A DNA stretch of 64,000 nucleotides from a virus, in IMG/VR virus record IMGVR_UViG_3300027792_000010. One strand, 5' to 3'. The translations under genes and the position numbers were made by a program. The notes beneath the pieces were generated by a model. That model was given only the letters and a program-made list of their open reading frames with translations. It was not told where the DNA came from and ran no database searches. Numbering within the stretch: position 1 is the stretch's first letter; the number at the start of each line of letters is the position of its first letter. Positions 544 through 61,643 of this stretch are shown here, in pieces.

Positions 544-1083
544 CTATCCTCTTTTAATATTTTTGTACGCCTTTTTTAGCTTATCTTTAAGTACCATATA
601 CTCCCCGCATGATAACTTTTCAATAAAAAGTAAACCTTCAAGATGCTCGTACTCATGCTGTATGACCCTTGCCAAGAGTCCTGCGGCTTTCTCTATTACT
701 ACTTCCTCACCGCTTTCATTAAGAGCTTTGATAGATACTGTGTCGGGTCTCTTGATCCTCAGTTGTAATCCTGGAAAACTTAGGCATCCCTCAAGGTCTT
801 CAACCAGAGTATCTGACTGATAAGTTATCTCTGGGTTAACAAATACCTGAGGACTATCGTGAGCCTCTGAAATATCTATAATGAAGAATCTGGCAGGTAT
901 GCCTATTTGAGGGGCTGCGATACCTATTCCTTTTTTGTCATACATTACTTTCAAAATCTCTGGGAGTACCTCTTTTAGGTCTTCTATATCAGTACTATTG
1001 AGAAGTCCTGCAGTTTTTCGTAAAACAGAAGAACCGTATATCTTAATAGAATAGGGCGGATCTGAAGGAAGCTCTGTTTCCAT
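544..1083 (-). CDS. def: peptide deformylase
   Basis: Motifs GIGIAAPQIG, EGCLS, QHEYEHLEG. Confidence 0.95.
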   Translation of the reverse strand: METELPSDPPYSIKIYGSSVLRKTAGLLNSTDIEDLKEVLPEILKVMYDKKGIGIAAPQIGIPARFFIIDISEAHDSPQVFVNPEITYQSDTLVEDLEGCLSFPGLQLRIKRPDTVSIKALNESGEEVVIEKAAGLLARVIQHEYEHLEGLLFIEKLSCGEYMVLKDKLKKAYKNIKRG

Positions 1084-1217: not shown

Positions 1218-1457
1218 TTAATATTCTCTGCGTTTGGACTTTCTACGGATACCACTCTGCTCTTCTCTTTCCCGAGTCTCATTCATCTGTACTTTACGAA
1301 TTGCAGCTTTTGTTTTAGCTCTCTTAATAACGCTAGGTTTATCATAGCGCTGTTTGTTTCTTACTTCTGATAGGACACCGGAATCATCCATTGTCCTTGA
1401 GAACCTTTTGAGAGCTTTCTCAATGTTTTCATTGTCTCTAATCTTTACGCCATTCAT
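1218..1457 (-). CDS. rpsU: ribosomal protein bS21
   Basis: VKIRDNENIEKALKRF...EVRNKQRYDKPS pattern; AGGAG upstream of ATG at 1457. Confidence 0.92.
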   Translation of the reverse strand: MNGVKIRDNENIEKALKRFSRTMDDSGVLSEVRNKQRYDKPSVIKRAKTKAAIRKVQMNETREREEQSGIRRKSKRREY

Positions 1458-1585
1458 CTTAAACTTACTCCTGAGGGTTTTCAACCCTCTGTTGTTTTTA
1501 TAAACATATAATTGGACTCGAACAGACGGCTTGATCCTTATTACCAGAATTTTAGCCCTTAACCATAATGGAGGTCTGATCTAAC

Positions 1586-2288: not shown

Positions 2289-2671
2289 CCGATCTATAAA
2301 ACTTACTCAAAACCAACAGGAGTTAGTTTTGATGTTTATTTCTTGCTTCATAGAAACAGCTTTTAAGTTTTAGGTCCTTAAAAGTCTTACACTTTCTCCA
2401 CAAGCTTAAGTTCCGGTCGATCTGACCGTACCGATAACTCATATCCCCGAAGGGAAAGGAGGTATCGTTATTCGAAAGGATAAACTCTTACGGTTAAACC
2501 TATTTGATTCTAACCAGCCCTTAAAGTCTATGTCAAAGAACTAATACCTACTTGTTTTTCGTAGGCATACTTAATATACTTCTTGAATAATTAAAAATTA
2601 AATATTTTTATTAATAGCCTTGAGTAAATTTAATTATATTTTGTATAAATTTATGTGACTGTTAGATTCCC
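2289..2671 (-). mobile_element. non-autonomous IS607-like mini-element (left end plus omegaRNA/right end, no tnpB)
   Basis: Shares CTGTTAGATTCCCT (2659-2672) with the tnpB element left end (33280-33293); 2289-2430 aligns with the tnpB 3' end/right end (31931-32068). Confidence 0.75.
2531..2541 (-). promoter_or_regulatory. boxA-like antitermination motif GTTCTTTGACA (exact copies also at 2848-2858 and 10680-10690)
   Basis: Three identical intergenic 11-mers resembling the rrn boxA consensus. Confidence 0.55.
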
Positions 2672-2931: not shown

Positions 2932-3040
2932 CGGAGGGTGAGGGATTTGAACCCCCAAACCCGTAAGGGTGACGGTTTTCGCCGGAACATCTCATGGGTG
3001 TGCCGACAAGACCGTTGACTTACCATTAGCCTAACCCTCC
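2932..3040 (-). tRNA. tRNA-Ser(UGA) with 27-nt insertion in the anticodon (2980-3006)
   Basis: GGAGGGT acceptor, G73, long V arm; removing 27 nt restores ACGGT-CTTGAAA-ACCGT. Confidence 0.85.
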
Positions 3041-4867: not shown

Positions 4868-5677
4868 ATGTGGGTCTTCTTAGCAAATCTCAATCCGTGG
4901 CTTTCTTACAGTCTTCTTGTCTTATGTTTAATAGCACTAGTAGTTATCTCTTTAAGAGGTAAACTTTTTGTGCAGTGGGATAAAGACAAGGTTATAGGAG
5001 TAGGTAGAGGCAGTAAAAAGGATGAAAAAGAATTAGAATCCTCGAATAAAAAGGGGGACCCTGTTAGTAGACACCCAGATACGTATATAGTCCCTAGCTG
5101 CTCTGATTGTATACTCCTTGTATTAGGGATGAGGGAGAAGGCTCAGATGGCTATGGATAAAGTAGAAAATCATATATTGAAAAATCAGATGAACTTTTGT
5201 GAACAAAAGCTTGCCGAATTAACATCTCTAATACTTAATGAATTTTCTAAAGTCATTGGTAATAAGGAGGCTATAATAAGTGAAGCTCTCCGATATGAGA
5301 TTGTTAGGGCATTACTGTCAGAGATCATAGAAAGACTTAAATCTGAGATAAGAAGGTCATTTAAAGAGAATGGCTTCTATGAGTTCGGGGATGGAGAATT
5401 CTCTAATTACGTAAATAATAGATATGACTATCTGGCTACAATCTCTGACCAGCACTATAGCAACAGGTATCTTGCCTATAGTTCTATCCTACCCTTTGAT
5501 TTGATAAGTGGAATTTTTGATAATAATAAGGACAAAATATACTCTATAGTAAGGGAAATATATACAATATCTAAGAGTATAAAAGCAAAAGCTAACGAAG
5601 ATATGGAAGAAGAAAAGAAAGCTTTTGCTGAAGAAGTTAGATCATTCGTAAAATCAAGAGGAGCACCAATATACTAA
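4868..5677 (+). CDS. membrane-anchored hypothetical protein; the only convincing plus-strand gene
   Basis: 269 aa, N-terminal hydrophobic helix, AGGAG RBS, occupies a gap free of minus-strand ORFs. Confidence 0.8.
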   Translation: MWVFLANLNPWLSYSLLVLCLIALVVISLRGKLFVQWDKDKVIGVGRGSKKDEKELESSNKKGDPVSRHPDTYIVPSCSDCILLVLGMREKAQMAMDKVENHILKNQMNFCEQKLAELTSLILNEFSKVIGNKEAIISEALRYEIVRALLSEIIERLKSEIRRSFKENGFYEFGDGEFSNYVNNRYDYLATISDQHYSNRYLAYSSILPFDLISGIFDNNKDKIYSIVREIYTISKSIKAKANEDMEEEKKAFAEEVRSFVKSRGAPIY

Positions 5678-9037: not shown

Positions 9038-9187
9038 AGGCTCAAAGACTCCTGATACGATCAGCTTACCATCATCAGTTTCACCTACAACTGTTAAGGT
9101 AACAGTACTCCGTTTGCTTTTAGCATGGGGGTGTCTCCTTTTCTATTTATATTACAAGTTTTTCATATGGATTACAATTATTTTAAA

Positions 9188-9271
9188 CAAGTGCGGAGGG
9201 ACTCGAACCCCCACAGACTCAAAGAGTCACGGTTTTGGAGACCGCTGAACTACCTATTATTCTACGCACTT
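9188..9271 (-). tRNA. tRNA-Trp(CCA) with long variable arm
   Basis: A1-U72, G73, loop CTCCAAA, 16-nt variable region GACTC-TTT-GAGTC. Confidence 0.9.
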
Positions 9272-9552
9272 ATGTTTATTTTCATGTATGTCATGTACAC
9301 TATAGACAATTGTGGTAATTTTTTCTGCTTGATTCAATATTGATATTAATCTTTGTTTTATCTTTTCGTCAGTGGCAGATAGAAGTAATAGTTCAGCATT
9401 TCCGATGATACAGCATAGAGCGTTACAGATATCATGATGTTCTTTCATGATTAACCCCCTCATTAGATGTTAGTAGAGTCACATAGGGGTATTATATGGG
9501 TCTGCGTATAATAGTATTAAATAAATTAATGTATTATTATAAAGTAAAGAAA

Positions 9553-9643: not shown

Positions 9644-9755
9644 TGGTGGTAGAGAGAGGATTTGAACCTCTGTACCCCGAAGGGAGCGGATTTGCTAAGT
9701 TCACCGCTCGGATGAACTTAACAGTCCGCCGCTTTTTCCACTCAGCCACTCTACC
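9644..9755 (-). tRNA. tRNA-Tyr(GUA) with 27-nt insertion in the anticodon (9694-9720)
   Basis: Tyr-type body (G1-C72, A73, V arm CCC-TTCG-GGG); removing 27 nt restores GCGGA-CTGTAAA-TCCGC. Confidence 0.85.
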
Positions 9756-10295: not shown

Positions 10296-10322
10296 ATAAA
10301 AGATATTAATCGAAAATTAAGA

Positions 10323-10467
10323 GGGTCTTATACGAGTTATCAGAGCGTTAATGAAAGCTTATAGGCTTTTGCGGTTACCATTTCGCCATCCCTGCGTAAA
10401 GATGCAGGGACCAGGATTCGAACCTGGAAATTTTAATGTATGCTCGTAAAGTTAGAGTATAAAACCC
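10323..10467 (-). ncRNA. circularly permuted tRNA-like RNA (YrlA/Y-RNA-like architecture)
   Basis: Order T-arm (CCAGG-TTCGAAT-CCTGG), TCCCTGC-A, 7-nt linker, GCAGGGA, D-arm, hairpin; all closed by the 11-bp stem GGGTTTTATAC/GTATAAGACCC. Confidence 0.7.
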
Positions 10468-10487
10468 ACTTAATACTCGATTATTTT

Positions 10488-10563: not shown

Positions 10564-10779
10564 CTATTTATAGATGGGCTATATTCCTGCGGAGCAATAC
10601 TGCTCGTACAGGAATGTAGCCATTTATTTAGAAACAGTTATTTCCGTTTCACAAAGTGCTTATTACATCGAACCATGACTGTCAAAGAACTTAAAAACAA
10701 CCTACCAGATCATATAGCACCTTGGCGTAACCTCGCCTACCACAACTCCGATCTGGCCCAGGGGCACTGCCGGGCTATG

Positions 10780-10965
10780 TTATTTCATAGTTTCTGGTTG
10801 TATTTTAATTACTCGTACCCTATCAAGTCTTTTACGTATCTTATCTTCAGGGAGCATAGAAACTAATCTTCGTGCCTCCGCTTTACTCAGACAAATACGT
10901 TTCTCTATAATTCCATCTATCAATTCTTTAGCTTTCTTATCTTCTATATCCATATTATCCTCCAA
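10780..10965 (-). CDS. hypothetical protein
   Basis: ORF track; GGAGG RBS; first gene after attenuator 1. Confidence 0.6.
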   Translation of the reverse strand: MEDNMDIEDKKAKELIDGIIEKRICLSKAEARRLVSMLPEDKIRKRLDRVRVIKIQPETMK

Positions 10966-10973
10966 GTACTAAA

Positions 10974-11010
10974 ACAAAAAACCCCGCTTCAGTTTCCTGG
11001 GCGGGGTTTC
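10974..11010 (-). terminator. attenuator 1 intrinsic terminator
   Basis: AAACCCCGC...GCGGGGTTT hairpin followed by TTTTTGTTTT. Confidence 0.9.
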
Positions 11011-11037
11011 GTATTTTTTCTGGTTTACCAGTTTACG

Positions 11038-11151
11038 TCAAGTTTTCCCACCCACCACTATATTATTACAGAGTAAATATGACAATAACCATGCGGCTGC
11101 TGTATGCAGCTTGGTCATTGTCGAACATAGTGTAGAATGGACTTTTTTCAT
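11038..11151 (-). CDS. attenuator leader peptide 1 (37 aa) MKKVHSTLCSTMTKLHTAAAWLLSYLLCNNIVVGGKT
   Basis: Lies between promoter 11180-11208 and terminator; contains antiterminator TGGGTGGG (11047-11054). Confidence 0.85.
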   Translation of the reverse strand: MKKVHSTLCSTMTKLHTAAAWLLSYLLCNNIVVGGKT

Positions 11152-11179
11152 TTTAAATACCTATTACCTTTCAATTTAT

Positions 11180-11208
11180 AATATACCATTTTGTAGAACC
11201 AAGATCAA
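11180..11208 (-). promoter_or_regulatory. sigma70 promoter of attenuator 1 (TTGATC-N17-TATATT, TGG before -10)
   Basis: Same architecture as the other three attenuator promoters. Confidence 0.85.
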
Positions 11209-23621: not shown

Positions 23622-23657
23622 AAAAAAGCCCCCGAACTTCTCAGTCCGGGGGCTTTT
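23622..23657 (-). terminator. attenuator 2 intrinsic terminator
   Basis: AAAAGCCCCCGGAC...GTTCGGGGGCTTTTTT. Confidence 0.92.
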
Positions 23658-23680
23658 ATAAGCTACTTGTTTACCCGGAC

Positions 23681-23758
23681 CTATACAATACTATCAAACA
23701 TACTATCAAAACTGATAGTATCGCTGTTGATGATAATGCTGAAAGTAGAGGTACACAT
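23681..23758 (-). CDS. attenuator leader peptide 2 (25 aa) MCTSTFSIIINSDTISFDSMFDSIV
   Basis: AAGGA RBS; antiterminator GTCCGGG (23674-23680) directly after the TAG. Confidence 0.88.
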   Translation of the reverse strand: MCTSTFSIIINSDTISFDSMFDSIV

Positions 23759-23798
23759 TGAAAATAGTTTTCCTTGAAAAAGTTTTTGTTCTGTCTTT

Positions 23799-23827
23799 AA
23801 TATACCACTTTGTAATACAAAGATCAA
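23799..23827 (-). promoter_or_regulatory. sigma70 promoter of attenuator 2
   Basis: TTGATC-N17-TATATT with AAGTGG before -10. Confidence 0.85.
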
Positions 23828-31930: not shown

Positions 31931-33292
31931 CCGTTCTGAAAAACTTATAAAATCTTTGCAAGACTCATGTTTTCTTCCTGCTTCATAGAAACAGCTTCTT
32001 GACCTATACAAGCATCTTGAAGTCTTATACTTTCTCCACAGGCTTTAATTCCCGACGAACTATCGGTATTTTTAAGTTTAATTAATACATACTTTTCAAG
32101 ATTAATAGATGCATTTAAGTCTCTATCTATGACATTTCCACAATCACATATATAAATCCTATCTTCTAAAGTAAGGTCTTCTTTCAAACAACCACAAACA
32201 GAACACGTCTTACTTGAAGGAAAGAACCTATCTACTTTAATTATGGAACCTCCATACCAAGAGGTCTTATAGGTTAGTTGCCTTTTAATTTCATTAAAAG
32301 AAGCATCTCCTATAGCACCTGCAAGTTTATGATTTTTCATCATACCAGAGACGTTTAAATCTTCTAAAACGATGTATCTTGGTTTGGTTTTCGCCAAAAT
32401 ACTTGTCATCTTATGAAGAGTATCTTTTCTTTGACTACTAATTCTTTTATATATCTTTTGTACTTTTAATTTACTCTTTAATCTATTATTACTTGATCTT
32501 TTAGTTTCTTTATCAAACTTTTTACGAGCTAAATCCTTTTGAGCATGAGCTAACTTTTTCTTTGATTTTTTAAGATACTTAGGATTTTCAAATATTTGAC
32601 AATTAGAACATGTAGCTAATGTTTTAATGCCTACATCAACACCTAAAACAGATTCTATTTGGTTTACTGGTTCTGGTATATCTTGTTCTACTTGAACAGA
32701 TATATACCATCTATCAGCTTCTTTGGAGACTGTCATAGAGTTTATTTTAACATCTTTAGTTGTTATATAACCTTTTTCTTTAAGTTTTACATAACCGACT
32801 TTAGGAATATTGATTGTTGAATTAGTTATATAGAACCCAAAGGAAATCCTAAAAGAATCTTTGTCTTTATGTTTTGACTTGAACTTAGGGAAACCTACTT
32901 TTTTACCTTGTTTCAAACCTCTAAAAAAGTTTTTGAAAGCTGTATCTAAATCCCTTAATGCTTCTTGAGGAGCCATTTTGGATATATCATACATCCAATG
33001 ATAATCAGTTTTCTTCTTACTACATAAAATTTTATGTTGATCTATAGCAGTTAAGGTTTTCTTTTCTGACTTATAAAGTTCTATACGTTCATTTAATCCC
33101 CAATTATAAGCAAAACGAGCACATCCAACACTCTTTTCTAAAAGAGTACGTTGTTTATTATTAGGATTAAGTTCTACTTTATATGCTCTATTTATCTTCA
33201 TTTTCTTTATTCTTCTTAGTCATATGACTTCTTCTACCATAAATTTTAGCTGAATAACAAGACATAATAGTTAAGATATCTGTTAGATTCCC
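31931..33292 (-). mobile_element. IS607-family element carrying only tnpB (no tnpA)
   Basis: Left end GGGAATCTAACAG, right end TAAGTTTTTCAGAACGG, GG at both junctions. Confidence 0.75.
31945..33201 (-). CDS. tnpB: RNA-guided endonuclease TnpB
   Basis: RAYKVELNP HTH; RuvC D (GVDVG), E (VLEDL), D (DRDLNA) intact; zinc finger CSVC...CDC. Confidence 0.95.
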   Translation of the reverse strand: MKINRAYKVELNPNNKQRTLLEKSVGCARFAYNWGLNERIELYKSEKKTLTAIDQHKILCSKKKTDYHWMYDISKMAPQEALRDLDTAFKNFFRGLKQGKKVGFPKFKSKHKDKDSFRISFGFYITNSTINIPKVGYVKLKEKGYITTKDVKINSMTVSKEADRWYISVQVEQDIPEPVNQIESVLGVDVGIKTLATCSNCQIFENPKYLKKSKKKLAHAQKDLARKKFDKETKRSSNNRLKSKLKVQKIYKRISSQRKDTLHKMTSILAKTKPRYIVLEDLNVSGMMKNHKLAGAIGDASFNEIKRQLTYKTSWYGGSIIKVDRFFPSSKTCSVCGCLKEDLTLEDRIYICDCGNVIDRDLNASINLEKYVLIKLKNTDSSSGIKACGESIRLQDACIGQEAVSMKQEENMSLAKIL

Positions 33293-34376: not shown

Positions 34377-34452
34377 TGGCTGGGACACAGGGACTTGAAC
34401 CCCGAACACCCAGAGTCAGAGTCTGGTGCTCTACCAATTGAGCTATGTCCCA
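34377..34452 (-). tRNA. tRNA-Gln(CUG)
   Basis: U1-A72, G73, loop CTCTGAC, CCA encoded. Confidence 0.95.
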
Positions 34453-34537
34453 CTATATGTCTGTTTATTACTCTTAGCTAATCCTTAAAACTATATAATA
34501 ATAAACTTCTTATTGAGAGTTCTATATTAATAAGTTA

Positions 34538-34608
34538 TGCCCCTAATTGGTCTCGAACCAATGACTCCTGTTTTAGAGACAGTTGTTTTACCACTAAACT
34601 ATAAGGGC
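34538..34608 (-). tRNA. amber-suppressor tRNA (anticodon CUA)
   Basis: GCCCTTA/TAGGGGC acceptor, A73, arm (A)CTGT-CTCTAAA-ACAG(G). Confidence 0.85.
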
Positions 34609-34614
34609 ACATAA

Positions 34615-36422: not shown

Positions 36423-36499
36423 TGGTCGGCAATACTGGATTTGAACCAGTGATCCCTTGCTCCCAAAGCAAGTGCGTTACCAGACTACGCTAATTGCCG
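36423..36499 (-). tRNA. tRNA-Pro(UGG)
   Basis: C1-G72, A73, loop TTTGGGA, CCA encoded. Confidence 0.95.
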
Positions 36500-36509
36500 A
36501 TAGATAAAC

Positions 36510-36643
36510 AGTAAACCGAACCCAGCCCACATTCAACACCATCTTTTCATTTAAAGGTTACAATTTCCTGCCACCCCGCGAGTAACCACAGGTGGTTGAG
36601 CGATTGCTGGCTGGGTCTTGTTTCTTCGTCAGGTCCGGTTTAC
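36510..36643 (-). ncRNA. unidentified structured RNA (long irregular hairpin)
   Basis: GTAAACCG/CGGTTTAC, GACCCAGCC/GGCTGGGTT, TCAAC-CACC/GGTG-TTGA; G.U pairs favour the minus strand. Confidence 0.5.
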
Positions 36644-36651
36644 TTTTTATT

Positions 36652-37638
36652 TTATAAGTTATTATCCAAATAGCTCATCCAAAATATTCTAGCTTTATTG
36701 GATATAAACGATCCCATCTTTTTAGGATCTATACCATTTTTAATAATGGTATCCTGTTCTTCCTTCATTACATCACTATATACCCACCTTATGTATTCTC
36801 CGGTGGTAGATTTATCCAGAGGATTCCCAAGTTCTTTCATTTTGTCGATGCCTTGCTGCATCCTATTTTCAGTTACAGCATATTCAACAAACTCTTTTAC
36901 ATTTTCTACCTCTTCGGTGTCGATAGAGGCAAGTTTCTTAACTTTACTATTCTGATGCTTCTCACCTTTCACCTTAAAGATATATCTTTTGGTATCATCT
37001 ATATATTCCCAAACTATTCCTTCCCCCAAACCACCTATCCCAAAGTATTTACCCACAGGGCATTCTTCTTCTACTTTTATAGTAAGCTCTACTAGTTTAT
37101 TCTGAGCTATTTCTGGCTTATTGAAGTCTATATCCAGTTCATAGTTCTCAAACTGAAGAATATTGAATATCTTTTTATCCTCATTCTTAAGATGCTTGAA
37201 TTGCTCTATAGGCTTATAGACATCATCTATTCTAATTGCAAAAATTACCCACATGACAGGTAGTTTACTTATAGCTACACATTTTTGTATGCCAGAACCA
37301 CACCACTCTCCATAGATAGCACAACTGTCATTAAATTCTATACCTTCAAAAATCTTGTCTATGTCTCTATTCGTCATGGTAAGCATAAAACGGTAATTAT
37401 CAGATTCTATGCTCAACAACCTATCTTTACTTTGATATTCATAATGTCCATCTTTATATTTAACAATGGCTGAGTTTGTGCCGTGAAGTTTTATGGTCCC
37501 ACGGAACTTTAGAATAGGATAATCAGTCTCATGCCTATAGACAGGAGCACCTGTTTTATCCTCACCTTTATAATCATGGTGAGATTTAACTGCTCTGATA
37601 ACTTCTCTGAATTGTCCTATATCGGTAAATTTTTTCAT
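36652..37638 (-). CDS. ATP-dependent RNA ligase (Rnl2-like)
   Basis: TIKLHGTN (motif I), YGEW, GEGIVW, FKVKGEKH. Confidence 0.85.
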   Translation of the reverse strand: MKKFTDIGQFREVIRAVKSHHDYKGEDKTGAPVYRHETDYPILKFRGTIKLHGTNSAIVKYKDGHYEYQSKDRLLSIESDNYRFMLTMTNRDIDKIFEGIEFNDSCAIYGEWCGSGIQKCVAISKLPVMWVIFAIRIDDVYKPIEQFKHLKNEDKKIFNILQFENYELDIDFNKPEIAQNKLVELTIKVEEECPVGKYFGIGGLGEGIVWEYIDDTKRYIFKVKGEKHQNSKVKKLASIDTEEVENVKEFVEYAVTENRMQQGIDKMKELGNPLDKSTTGEYIRWVYSDVMKEEQDTIIKNGIDPKKMGSFISNKARIFWMSYLDNNL

Positions 37639-38036: not shown

Positions 38037-38084
38037 CGTAATGATAATATACTTTTTGGAAGTATGAGTTTAAAGTAAAAAGAG

Positions 38085-38156
38085 CTGGAGTGCAGGGATT
38101 TGAACCCCGATACTTAGATCCAAAATCTAAGATCCTAACCGTTGGATGACACCCCA
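38085..38156 (-). tRNA. tRNA-Gln(UUG)
   Basis: U1-A72, G73, loop TTTTGGA. Confidence 0.95.
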
Positions 38157-38207: not shown

Positions 38208-38285
38208 TGGTCTAGATGGAGGGATTCGAACCCACGACCCTCGCGCCCCAAACGCGATGCTCTAGCCGGACTGAGCTACATCTAG
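38208..38285 (-). tRNA. tRNA-Pro(UGG), second copy
   Basis: C1-G72, A73, loop TTTGGGG, CCA encoded. Confidence 0.93.
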
Positions 38286-38296
38286 AGTTATTAAGG

Positions 38297-38380
38297 CTGA
38301 CACGGAGGGACTTGAACCCCCAAGCTCCTTACGGAGCGAACGGTTAACAGCCGTTTTCCTTGCCATTAGGATACGTGTCA
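38297..38380 (-). tRNA. tRNA-Asn(GUU) with long variable arm
   Basis: U1-A72, G73, loop CTGTTAA, 17-nt variable region GCTCC-GTAA-GGAGC. Confidence 0.9.
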
Positions 38381-38430
38381 GTAAAAACAAATGTTCTGCA
38401 TTCATCTGTTATATTTAAAAGAACAAAAAT

Positions 38431-38475
38431 AAAAAAGCCTCAGCGATCCTTGGTTCGGTTCGCTGAGGCTCTTTT
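38431..38475 (-). terminator. attenuator 3 intrinsic terminator
   Basis: AGAGCCTCAGCGA...TCGCTGAGGCTTTTTT. Confidence 0.92.
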
Positions 38476-38494
38476 CAGAGATTTTGGCTGTTAC

Positions 38495-38581
38495 CTAATG
38501 CAAAACAACCACCTTCAGCGAAACCTTATTAGGTTGCTGTGGATTAGGGTTCGGGTTATTTTGATTAGTAACAATAAACAT
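38495..38581 (-). CDS. attenuator leader peptide 3 (28 aa) MFIVTNQNNPNPNPQQPNKVSLKVVVLH
   Basis: AAGGA RBS; antiterminator TTCGCTGAAGG (38512-38522). Confidence 0.88.
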   Translation of the reverse strand: MFIVTNQNNPNPNPQQPNKVSLKVVVLH

Positions 38582-38610
38582 AATTTTTAATCCTTTTAAT
38601 GCTTAACTTT

Positions 38611-38639
38611 AATATACCACTTTGGTATAAGAAGATCAA
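38611..38639 (-). promoter_or_regulatory. sigma70 promoter of attenuator 3
   Basis: TTGATC-N17-TATATT with AAGTGG before -10. Confidence 0.85.
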
Positions 38640-38653
38640 GAAAAATTATAGTT

Positions 38654-39046
38654 TTATTTTAATTCTTGATATTTAACAATTTTCATTTCCTCTTTTGAGA
38701 CCACTAAAGATTTTTCCAGTAGAAGATTTGACTTCTGTATAACTGTTCCTGCTCCAAGCCAAGGAGCTATTAATTTATATTTCGTTCCTTTTGAGTTCTC
38801 AAAAACAGCCATACAAAAAATTGAATCTATACTAAATCTTATTTCGTCTCTATATATAAACTTCATTACACTACATGTATCATTTACTGGTATGCTGCTT
38901 TTTAATCTCCATCCGTTATTATCTAACTGAGTATTATTCTTATATACCATCATTTGAGGGGTACTATATTGTTTTTCAAAACCCTTATTATTACCACAAG
39001 ACGCTATTACAATAATAGTTGATAATATTAATGCTTTGTATTTCAT
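38654..39046 (-). CDS. putative lipoprotein
   Basis: Signal peptide ending IASC. Confidence 0.7.
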   Translation of the reverse strand: MKYKALILSTIIVIASCGNNKGFEKQYSTPQMMVYKNNTQLDNNGWRLKSSIPVNDTCSVMKFIYRDEIRFSIDSIFCMAVFENSKGTKYKLIAPWLGAGTVIQKSNLLLEKSLVVSKEEMKIVKYQELK

Positions 39047-57267: not shown

Positions 57268-58608
57268 TCAGTTGATACTGTAGTTTGCCCTAATATACAA
57301 CAATGCTTGTTCTTTTGTTGTAACAGTACCTTCCAATTGTTCAGTGTCTACTGCTTCAAGAATCTCTTTGAATTTAGGTCCGGGTTTGAAACCCATAGCA
57401 ATAAGGTCATTACCATCTACCAATCTATCTGGAAGGATGACCTTACCTCCTGGTTCCTCTGCAAAAGAATCCATAGCTTCTTTAACAAACTGCAAATTAT
57501 CTAATCCTCCATGAGAAGACAAACAATCAGCCTTGTGAAGTTGCAAGTGCTCTTCAAATCTATCCATAGCTATAAATCTCTTAAGCGTGGACTTCCTCAT
57601 GTCCCGTATTACACAGAACTTCATATGGTTCTCAATTAGGGAACAAACCCTATCTATAAAATAATTTGAAAACTTCAACCTGGTTAATAGCTCTCTGGCT
57701 ATATGAGAGCCTTTAATATCATGTCCATTGAACACTAACCGACCTTTCCTATCATCCCAAGCTTTAGTAGTGGGCTTTCCCACATCATGCAACAAAGTAG
57801 CCCACAAAAGCTCTGGGGAGGCTTCTTTTGGGAGGTAATTCAAGGTGAGACAGGTGTGTTTACCGACGCACCCTTCTGGATGAAAGTCCACAGGCTGCTC
57901 ACACCCAAACATATCTTGAATTTCTGGCAGGATATGCTTTAGTATACCAAAATGTTCCAAATCCTTAAGAGCTTCTCCTCTGACTTTACTTTGTTCCAAT
58001 ATTTTTGTCAACTCATCTGCTATTCTCTCTACAGATATTTTCTTGATAAGGATACTATTATCCATTATAGCTTTCTCTGTATCGGAGTCCATAGAGAACC
58101 CCAAACGGTGTTTGAACCTTATGGCCCTCATTAATCTTAAGTGGTCTTCCAATATTCTCTCTTCAGGATCACCTATGAACCTAATTAATTTATCTTCTAT
58201 ATCTTTTCTACCGCCTACGTAATCATAGTACTCCTCAAGGGTAGGGTCATAAAAGATACCATTGATAGTGAGGTCTCTCCTGTTAGCATCCTCTTCCATA
58301 GTAGAAAACTCAACACTTGAAGGATGTCTACCATCCAAGTAAATACCTGCGTCTCTTCTAAAAGTAGCGACCTCAAATTGAATCCCATCAAGTATAACAA
58401 TTATTACGCCAAAAGCTTTCCCTACTTCTATATTATTAGGGAACAGTTCCTGAACTTGGTGAGGAAAAGCAGAGGTAGCTATATCATAATCATGCGGCAT
58501 AACACCCATAATTTGGTCACGATTGCAACCGCCAGCAAATACCGCTTGATATCCTGCGCTCTGTAGAATTTTAATAATACCTACAGCAAGTTCTTTTTGC
58601 TTATCCAT
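57268..58608 (-). CDS. cca: CCA tRNA nucleotidyltransferase with HD domain
   Basis: AGGCNRD, HDYDIAT, RRDLTING, DHLRLMRAIRF, LLHDVGK. Confidence 0.93.
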   Translation of the reverse strand: MDKQKELAVGIIKILQSAGYQAVFAGGCNRDQIMGVMPHDYDIATSAFPHQVQELFPNNIEVGKAFGVIIVILDGIQFEVATFRRDAGIYLDGRHPSSVEFSTMEEDANRRDLTINGIFYDPTLEEYYDYVGGRKDIEDKLIRFIGDPEERILEDHLRLMRAIRFKHRLGFSMDSDTEKAIMDNSILIKKISVERIADELTKILEQSKVRGEALKDLEHFGILKHILPEIQDMFGCEQPVDFHPEGCVGKHTCLTLNYLPKEASPELLWATLLHDVGKPTTKAWDDRKGRLVFNGHDIKGSHIARELLTRLKFSNYFIDRVCSLIENHMKFCVIRDMRKSTLKRFIAMDRFEEHLQLHKADCLSSHGGLDNLQFVKEAMDSFAEEPGGKVILPDRLVDGNDLIAMGFKPGPKFKEILEAVDTEQLEGTVTTKEQALLYIRANYSIN

Positions 58609-61404: not shown

Positions 61405-61455
61405 GATTTTAGACGTTTCTTATTTTTACTACTTTTCCACACGACCCCATAAAAC

Positions 61456-61490
61456 AAAAAAGCCCCAGAGAAAAATCTCCTGGGGCCTTT
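61456..61490 (-). terminator. attenuator 4 intrinsic terminator
   Basis: GGCCCCAGGAGA...TCTCTGGGGCTTTTTTG. Confidence 0.92.
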
Positions 61491-61514
61491 ATCTAAAGCT
61501 ATTTAGCTTCATGT

Positions 61515-61595
61515 TCAGATAAAAGAACCCCAGGGGCTACCTTTATGGCGCTTTGCTACGACTTTTACCTTTACCACAAACAAACTCATAAACAT
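61515..61595 (-). CDS. attenuator leader peptide 4 (26 aa) MFMSLFVVKVKVVAKRHKGSPWGSFI
   Basis: AAGGAG RBS; antiterminator CCTGGGGT (61527-61534). Confidence 0.9.
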   Translation of the reverse strand: MFMSLFVVKVKVVAKRHKGSPWGSFI

Positions 61596-61614
61596 AATAT
61601 ACTCCTTGTATCAT

Positions 61615-61643
61615 AATATACCACTTTGCCGGGTAAAGATCAA
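61615..61643 (-). promoter_or_regulatory. sigma70 promoter of attenuator 4
   Basis: TTGATC-N17-TATATT with AAGTGG before -10. Confidence 0.85.

Follow-up and report, generated by a model that had tools for sequence, protein, structure and literature searches.

We predict with good confidence that a short unit on the minus strand of a genome fragment from a large uncultured phage (38639-38425, here unit C) is a ribosome-mediated leader-peptide transcription attenuator of a phage tRNA operon. The window, the whole 64,000-nt stretch analysed here from the IMG/VR virus record IMGVR_UViG_3300027792_000010, is contained in a 190,913-bp metagenome contig. It has a GC content of 36.9% and 27 tRNA genes called by ARAGORN, all on the minus strand. 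In phages, tRNA genes are commonly seen as aids to codon usage or as substitutes for tRNAs that host defence systems destroy, and to our knowledge little is known about how their expression is controlled. A preliminary description had read unit C as an attenuator; our computational analysis supports this reading by the topology and geometry of the unit, the match between leader codons and downstream tRNAs, and the recurrence of the design in three more units of the window and three of an unrelated phage family.

The anatomy given in that description was correct on the minus strand in each of its sequence statements, positions included (Table 1). The promoter consists of TTGATC and a TG-extended TATATT separated by a 17-nt spacer. 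Directly 3' of it come a Shine-Dalgarno sequence, a start codon and a short ORF, the arrangement of the attenuator class, and the leader contains the cluster of regulatory codons typical of that class. The thirteen consecutive Asn/Pro/Gln codons that had been reported, with both CAA and CAG among them, are codons 6-18 (38566-38528): AAT CAA AAT AAC CCG AAC CCT AAT CCA CAG CAA CCT AAT. Asn and Gln are thus each represented by both of their codons and Pro by three, and Pro-Pro pairs are absent. As a peptide, NQNNPNPNPQQPN is the longest run made of three amino acids among the 1056 ORFs of at least 15 codons in the window, the runner-up having 10 residues. The unit's own tRNA block is cognate to 13 of 27 leader codons, where the codon usage of the window's long ORFs predicts 3.2 (P=3.3e-6; counting CCT and CCG as cognate to tRNA-Pro(UGG) presumes the usual U34 wobble). 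Codons belonging to the remaining three tRNA blocks of the window were not enriched in the leader.

Table 1. Positions of the elements of unit C, the genes behind it and the related features of the window.
Feature	Position	Strand	Remarks
-35 hexamer TTGATC	38634..38639	minus	Within 30-nt block common to all four window units
-10 element TGGTATATT	38611..38619	minus	TG-extended
Shine-Dalgarno AAGGA	38591..38595	minus	9 nt 5' of ATG (ATG at 38581)
Leader ORF MFIVTNQNNPNPNPQQPNKVSLKVVVLH	38495..38581	minus	28 codons + TAG stop (38497-38495)
Control run, codons 6-18	38528..38566	minus	13 consecutive Asn/Pro/Gln codons; 6-16 productive in model
Region 1, codons 3-9	38554..38574	minus	Pairs with 38513-38488 when free of ribosome
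Antiterminator 5' arm TTCGCTGAAGG	38512..38522	minus	Within codons 20-24
Nested hairpin TGGTTGTT...AACAGCCA	38485..38511	minus	Inside antiterminator; spans TAG stop
Intrinsic terminator hairpin	38436..38470	minus	-22 to -28 kcal/mol
Terminator 5' arm CCTCAGCGAA	38459..38468	minus	Partner of antiterminator arm
U-tract TTTTTTATTTTT	38425..38436	minus	Contains T6 run
tRNA-Asn(GTT)	38295..38380	minus	86 nt, long variable arm
tRNA-Pro(TGG) copy 1	38208..38285	minus	ARAGORN, Rfam
tRNA-Gln(TTG)	38084..38156	minus	ARAGORN, Rfam
RNA ligase gene (PF09414)	36652..37638	minus	Between gated tRNAs
tRNA-Pro(TGG) copy 2	36423..36499	minus	Sequence diverged from copy 1
tRNA anticodon CTA, amber suppressor	34537..34609	minus	ARAGORN label Pyl
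tRNA-Gln(CTG)	34377..34452	minus	ARAGORN, Rfam
Sister unit A	10976..11208	minus	Shared promoter, 37-codon leader rich in His/Thr/Leu/Cys/Ala/Trp/Tyr, terminator
Sister unit B	23622..23827	minus	Shared promoter, leader MCTSTFSIIINSDTISFDSMFDSIV, terminator
Sister unit D	61451..61643	minus	Shared promoter, leader MFMSLFVVKVKVVAKRHKGSPWGSFI, terminator
CCA-adding tRNA nucleotidyltransferase gene	57268-58608		Operon D
Ribosomal protein S21 gene	1218-1484		Among gated tRNA blocks
Peptide deformylase gene	544-1083		Among gated tRNA blocks

The tRNA order proposed for the operon (Asn, Pro, Gln(UUG), Pro, Sup(CUA), Gln(CUG)) was called by both ARAGORN and Rfam. An 86-aa ORF lies between tRNA-Gln(UUG) and the RNA ligase gene, and four small ORFs separate the second tRNA-Pro from the suppressor; Pfam returned no matches for the small ORFs 3' of unit C. 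The distal genes, Pro copy 2, Sup(CUA) and Gln(CUG), are 2-4 kb downstream behind protein genes. Their co-transcription is probable, since neither a strong terminator nor a strong promoter intervenes, and weak promoter-like sites are present along the way. Just downstream of the operon C region lies an IS605 OrfB/TnpB-type gene (31945-33201; HTH_OrfB_IS605, OrfB_IS605 and Cas12f1-like TNB domains). GC-rich stretches with long-range complementarity occur on the minus strand 5' of tRNA-Cys (10700-10790) and 5' of the second tRNA-Pro (36510-36650); they found no match in Rfam and may be structured RNAs or processing signals.

An intrinsic terminator separates the leader ORF from the first structural gene, 25 nt past the leader stop and about 45 nt before tRNA-Asn. 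Promoter, Shine-Dalgarno sequence, ORF and terminator would also make a complete small gene, a stand-alone unit for a 28-residue peptide, with the tRNAs served by another promoter that the A/T-rich 45-nt spacer before tRNA-Asn could conceal in weak form. We found no promoter-like site between the terminator and tRNA-Asn, and an independent micro-gene would leave unexplained both a peptide composition that mirrors the downstream tRNAs in seven units of two lineages (see below) and the terminator-complementary arm inside each ORF. We therefore regard such a gene as highly improbable.

The antiterminator pairing proposed earlier, TTCGCTGAAGG with CCTCAGCGAA, comprises 8+2 bp with one bulged A. 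Its duplex has a predicted energy of -15.9 kcal/mol, which was equalled by 1 of 1000 shuffles of the upstream sequence. The antiterminator fold of minimum energy likewise contains the proposed nested hairpin, TGGTTGTT with AACAGCCA. For the free leader, the predicted fold (-56.5 kcal/mol; z=-6.9 relative to shuffles) comprises a 1:2 hairpin, the terminator and an additional pairing of CAGCAACCU with AGGUUUCGCUG. When the terminator 3' arm is unavailable, the minimum-energy fold becomes the antiterminator, a junction with two nested hairpins; terminator and antiterminator are mutually exclusive. The 1:2 hairpin, also characteristic of the attenuator class, joins codons 3-9 to 38513-38488. Because region 1 pairs in this way when no ribosome is present, it would act as an anti-antiterminator and possibly as a pause hairpin. 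This hairpin is weaker or missing in some sister units. The three contigs that bear unit C are identical, so covariation is unavailable for this unit.

To model the effect of a translating ribosome, we masked the RNA up to 13 nt beyond the A-site codon's first base and computed the probability of the 10 antiterminator pairs. It reached 0.85-0.91 for A-site stalls at codons 2-16, fell to 0.65 at codon 17 and 0.04 at codon 18 with everything 5' masked, and was ~0 further on. The gate-opening stall positions hold 11 of the 13 matched codons. In the model, then, the antiterminator excludes the terminator, is free when the ribosome stalls and is blocked when it progresses. This bears out the caution in the preliminary description that the last control codons are only about 5 nt from the antiterminator: 5 nt separate the end of the run from the arm, and the antiterminator is lost when the modelled stall is at codons 17-18. 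The preference expressed there for codons 6-14 as sensors agrees with the model, which yields codons 6-16. Without a ribosome, the antiterminator scored 0.32 in unit C and was dominant in several sister units; since it is at least partly populated in the ribosome-free state, default termination would depend on tight coupling of transcription and translation. In a model with the ribosome footprint only, a ribosome on the TAG masks just the 3' edge of the arm (antiterminator 0.48), so that the off state needs ribosomes crossing codons 17-28 or refolding into the 1:2 hairpin.

From these folds, we infer how the unit would switch in the cell, provided that its promoter, ORF and terminator are used as their sequences suggest. 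A sigma-70-type promoter would start a transcript whose first element is the 28-codon ORF. If the Asn/Pro/Gln run is read fast, the ribosome would advance to codons 17-28, where it would mask the arm (38522-38512) or push it aside; the terminator (38470-38436) would then form, and transcription would end ahead of tRNA-Asn. Slow decoding of Asn, Pro or Gln codons would instead stall the ribosome within codons 6-16 and leave the arm free to pair with the terminator 5' arm, aided by the two nested hairpins. RNA polymerase would then read into tRNA-Asn, Pro and Gln(UUG), and readthrough would probably continue to the RNA ligase gene and the Pro, Sup(CUA) and Gln(CUG) tRNAs. Since the sensor codons are read by the very tRNAs produced, the loop would be a negative feedback on decoding capacity, and the phage probably makes its Asn, Pro and Gln tRNAs only when the matching codons are read slowly.

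Unit C is one of four such units in the window. Its 30-nt promoter block (TTGATCTT, 8 nt, AAA(G/A)TGGTATATTA) occurs in 4 copies and nowhere else in the window, and each copy precedes a short ORF, a terminator and a tRNA block. Behind unit A lie tRNAs for Cys, Leu (four), Tyr-like, Trp, His ... Thr and Ala (two). The leader of unit B is rich in Phe/Ser(AGY)/Ile/Asp/Met codons and is followed by tRNAs Phe, Asp, Met (two), Ile and Ser(GCT), and that of unit D is rich in Val/Lys/Arg codons and is followed by tRNAs Lys (two), Val (two) and Arg(ACG). Scoring the four leaders against the four tRNA sets gave a diagonal matrix, with own-set P values of 4.7e-4, 9.8e-8, 3.3e-6 and 3.8e-3 and no enriched off-diagonal entry. 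Phage-type genes for ribosomal protein S21, peptide deformylase, RNA ligase, a CCA-adding enzyme and ClpS are found among the window tRNAs. Searching IMG/VR with the promoter motif yielded no relative in which the window's promoter block is present.

Searches based on the RNA ligase retrieved 2 viral and 80 metagenomic loci. Among them, a distant phage lineage (RNA ligase 41% identical; contigs of 205-236 kb) has three units with a shared promoter of its own. In unit 1 of this lineage, a 31-nt promoter block, the leader MRNSTLNLVLVLCLLVADWVGYVC and a terminator precede tRNAs Cys, Val and Val. From the six Leu codons of MRNSTLNLVLVLCLLVADWVGYVC, we predicted Leu tRNAs further downstream before fetching the DNA, and four were then found, Leu(UAA), Leu(CAA), Leu(UAG) and Leu(AAG); an operon terminator comes after them. 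Unit 2, on the same contig, has MRTFANIFDFAFEFAAEADCAPARSTIVKS before tRNAs Phe, Glu, Asp, Ser and Ala. Unit 3, from IMG/VR relatives found via the lineage's promoter block, has MKKTSIHMHSINSWRRNSNPLESAMSVSFFDDY before tRNAs Trp, Ser, His, Ile, Met, Asn, Arg and Ser. The IMG/VR relatives also hold variant copies of units 1 and 2, in which the terminators are altered and the antiterminator is retained. Own-set P values for the three units were 2.7e-5, 3.1e-4 and 3.2e-4.

When the seven leaders were compared with the seven tRNA sets, the true pairing was the unique best of 5040 permutations (107 matched codons; next best 97, mean 46). Fisher combination over six units gave 3.6e-20. In each of seven units that were modelled, the on/off boundary falls at the end of the matched run, and 23-31 nt separate the stop from the terminator arm. 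The antiterminator persists as long as the A site is within the matched run and disappears over the last 6-10 codons. The on/off boundary was also found in three further modelled units.

These results bear on two further explanations. Terminator and antiterminator alternatives exist whatever the ORF encodes, and the ORF could be incidental to a translation-independent RNA switch, T-box-like or controlled by a bound protein. A T-box likewise attenuates transcription and, by codon-anticodon interaction, senses the state of a specific tRNA; it differs in binding uncharged tRNA directly without a ribosome and in controlling synthetase, biosynthesis and transport genes, while the codons of unit C lie in a translatable ORF. 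Neither the T-box family (RF00230) nor another riboswitch family matched the window at gathering score or 38400-38660 at E up to 10. Such a switch would also leave unexplained the codon-tRNA match in seven units and a boundary that tracks the end of the matched run, and we judge it very unlikely.

The terminator might alternatively do nothing but end an upstream operon, with ORF and complementarity arising by chance. Predicted terminators below -14 kcal/mol number only six on the minus strand of the 64 kb; the attenuators supply four of them and the sole ones with a TTTTTT run. Along the whole minus strand, short GC-rich hairpins with a T6 run behind them are nearly confined to the four attenuators. 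Given this rarity, each attenuator may also stop transcription arriving from the upstream block. The promoter, however, sits upstream of the terminator and not downstream, and chance would have to account for the codons (P=3e-6), the arm (1/1000) and the pairing (1/5040). Coincidence is scarcely credible as an explanation.

To determine how specific the signal is, we ran a blind scan for a terminator at most 300 nt upstream of a tRNA gene and a short ATG ORF ending just before that terminator. Over 86 sources (864 kb), only the attenuator units had P<0.005, and the remaining candidates had P>0.05. The tRNA regions of Xanthomonas phage XacN1, Vibrio phages V07 and D479 and Alishewanella phage Slicko01 contained no such unit, and no clear unit was seen in L002, L064, L082 or G001 (a 200-kb phage, 51% GC). 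With four cultured tRNA-rich phages and one 200-kb relative lacking it, the design is not general; it is real and restricted to some lineages. In G001, a mini-ORF, MTHHHHHSY, lies upstream of tRNA-Tyr (L103, ~2560-2590, minus strand), and an Arg/Glu-rich 30-codon ORF followed by a 17-bp hairpin without a U-tract (L102, ~4900-5050, minus strand) precedes tRNAs Glu, Gly, Asp and Arg. Both may be attenuator variants that a scan based on T-runs could not score.

In the closest relative, L001 (RNA ligase 73% identical), 24 tRNAs follow a 44-codon leader and a strong terminator. This tRNA set covers 71% of codon usage, so the codon match is uninformative there (P=0.37). At 1500-1640 and 1659-1778 of L001, a promoter-like site precedes a structured segment of ~90 nt, and a tRNA-Met is located before the leader ORF and is not part of the gated segment.

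Enterobacterial leaders such as trpL, hisL, pheL and leuL share with unit C the promoter-proximal ORF, the run of regulatory codons, the mutually exclusive hairpins, the 1:2 hairpin and readthrough upon stalling. The thrL leader (Thr and Ile) and that of ilvGMEDA (Leu/Val/Ile) each sense several amino acids, as unit C does, and among leader-peptide attenuators it is these multivalent leaders that unit C most resembles. The enterobacterial leaders differ in controlling biosynthetic enzymes, whereas the phage units control tRNAs and tRNA-repair-type enzymes. The output of the phage units feeds back on the decoder itself, and they are phage-encoded, with one promoter type common to the four units of the window. 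At gathering scores, Rfam matched only tRNAs in the window. A permissive search of 38400-38660 gave full-length matches to Thr_leader (RF00506; 23.7 bits against a cut-off of 55, E=0.017) and Phe_leader (RF01859; 15.5 bits against 55, E=3.9), and the other leader families (Trp, His, Leu) were not listed for this interval. Unit C was rejected as a member of an Rfam amino-acid leader family, as it scores below the gathering thresholds and the downstream genes neither make nor charge the sensed amino acids.

The same device could respond to amino-acid starvation, that is, to uncharged tRNA-Asn, tRNA-Pro or tRNA-Gln, and not to a shortage of the tRNA molecules. Absent and uncharged tRNAs are indistinguishable to a stalled ribosome, the unit is built like an amino-acid attenuator, and Thr_leader ranks first among the sub-threshold Rfam matches. 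Starvation, however, is not relieved by extra tRNA; biosynthetic and synthetase genes are absent from the gated genes, which are tRNAs, RNA ligase and, in unit D, the CCA-adding enzyme; and the leaders sample codons of particular isoacceptors (CAA and CAG in unit C; AGY for Ser(GCT) in unit B). We consider an amino-acid signal unlikely. The tRNA output, the isoacceptor-specific codons and the presence of repair-type enzymes with no biosynthetic genes together favour tRNA supply as the signal.

A related cellular system is pheM-pheST of E. coli, in which a leader peptide controls phenylalanyl-tRNA synthetase. There too, a translation component is controlled by the decoding rate of its own codons through ribosome-mediated attenuation. 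The product in that case is a synthetase that raises charging, whereas unit C yields tRNA, and the leader of unit C samples three amino acids as well as synonymous codons. Full-text literature searches found no description of leader-peptide attenuation of tRNA genes, phage or cellular, and no account of demand-driven control of phage tRNA expression was found. We rejected E. coli pheV as an attenuator-bearing tRNA gene, as just 105 nt lie between pheV and yqgA.

Sensing of tRNA supply may be connected with host defence. Phage tRNAs are reported to replace host tRNAs cleaved by defence nucleases, with T5 tRNAs acting against PARIS (PMC11464382) and phage tRNAs acting against retron effectors (PMC11555353). 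In these cases, as in our reading of unit C, phage tRNAs are a supply line when host tRNAs are lost, which would be a plausible reason for sensing decoding capacity; by this analogy, the attenuators may be linked to tRNA-targeting defence. We tentatively suggest, as a possibility more doubtful than the attenuator itself, that the units are a tRNA-damage response in which the leader TAG and the CUA suppressor provide positive feedback for that tRNA. A nuclease that cuts or depletes tRNAs would cause a stall on the matching leader and switch on that block alone, and the replacement tRNAs would be delivered with RNA ligase (operon C) and the CCA-adding enzyme (operon D), which could mend broken tRNAs.

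The suppressor part of this proposal is speculative. The leader of unit C contains no sense codon for the suppressor and has TAG solely as its stop. Suppression at this TAG would carry ribosomes across the terminator and give positive, not negative, feedback for the suppressor tRNA. TAG ends two of the four window leaders, compared with 10 of 58 long ORFs on the minus strand. Within the 64-kb window, neither ORF statistics nor Pfam reads across in-frame TAGs supported TAG recoding. No derivation of the suppressor from the phage's Gln tRNAs is visible, and the sequences are not close.

The units suggest that some large phages gauge decoding capacity codon by codon through a translated probe and activate only the block that runs short, thereby applying a classic bacterial mechanism to the translation machinery. 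If this reading is confirmed, the units would be compact, modular and reprogrammable sensors of the availability of individual tRNA species, and their sequences would reveal which tRNAs a phage expects to lose during infection. They would also offer a testable link between tRNA-targeting immunity and phage counter-measures.

Several tRNAs of the window and its relative are unusual in form. Rfam reported two 109-nt tRNA matches on the minus strand that ARAGORN missed (9647-9755 and 2932-3040). The match at 9647-9755 is a cloverleaf with a hairpin of ~30 nt inserted in the anticodon loop and looks like a phage tRNA with a small intron or insert; minus the insert, it would be a type-II tRNA bearing the anticodon GTA (Tyr). 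In the gap between tRNA-Cys and tRNA-Leu(TAG) (10297-10487, minus strand), where no tool called a tRNA, a T-arm and 3' acceptor-like segment is followed by a 5' acceptor, a D-arm and an anticodon-like segment, the order expected of a permuted or split tRNA. Long variable arms are unusual outside Leu, Ser and Tyr tRNAs. In the window, they occur on tRNAs Asn (38295-38380), Trp (9187-9272) and Thr (1123-1203), which are 81-95 nt long, and in L001 (3283-3833) on Lys, Asn, His, Pro and Cys tRNAs too.
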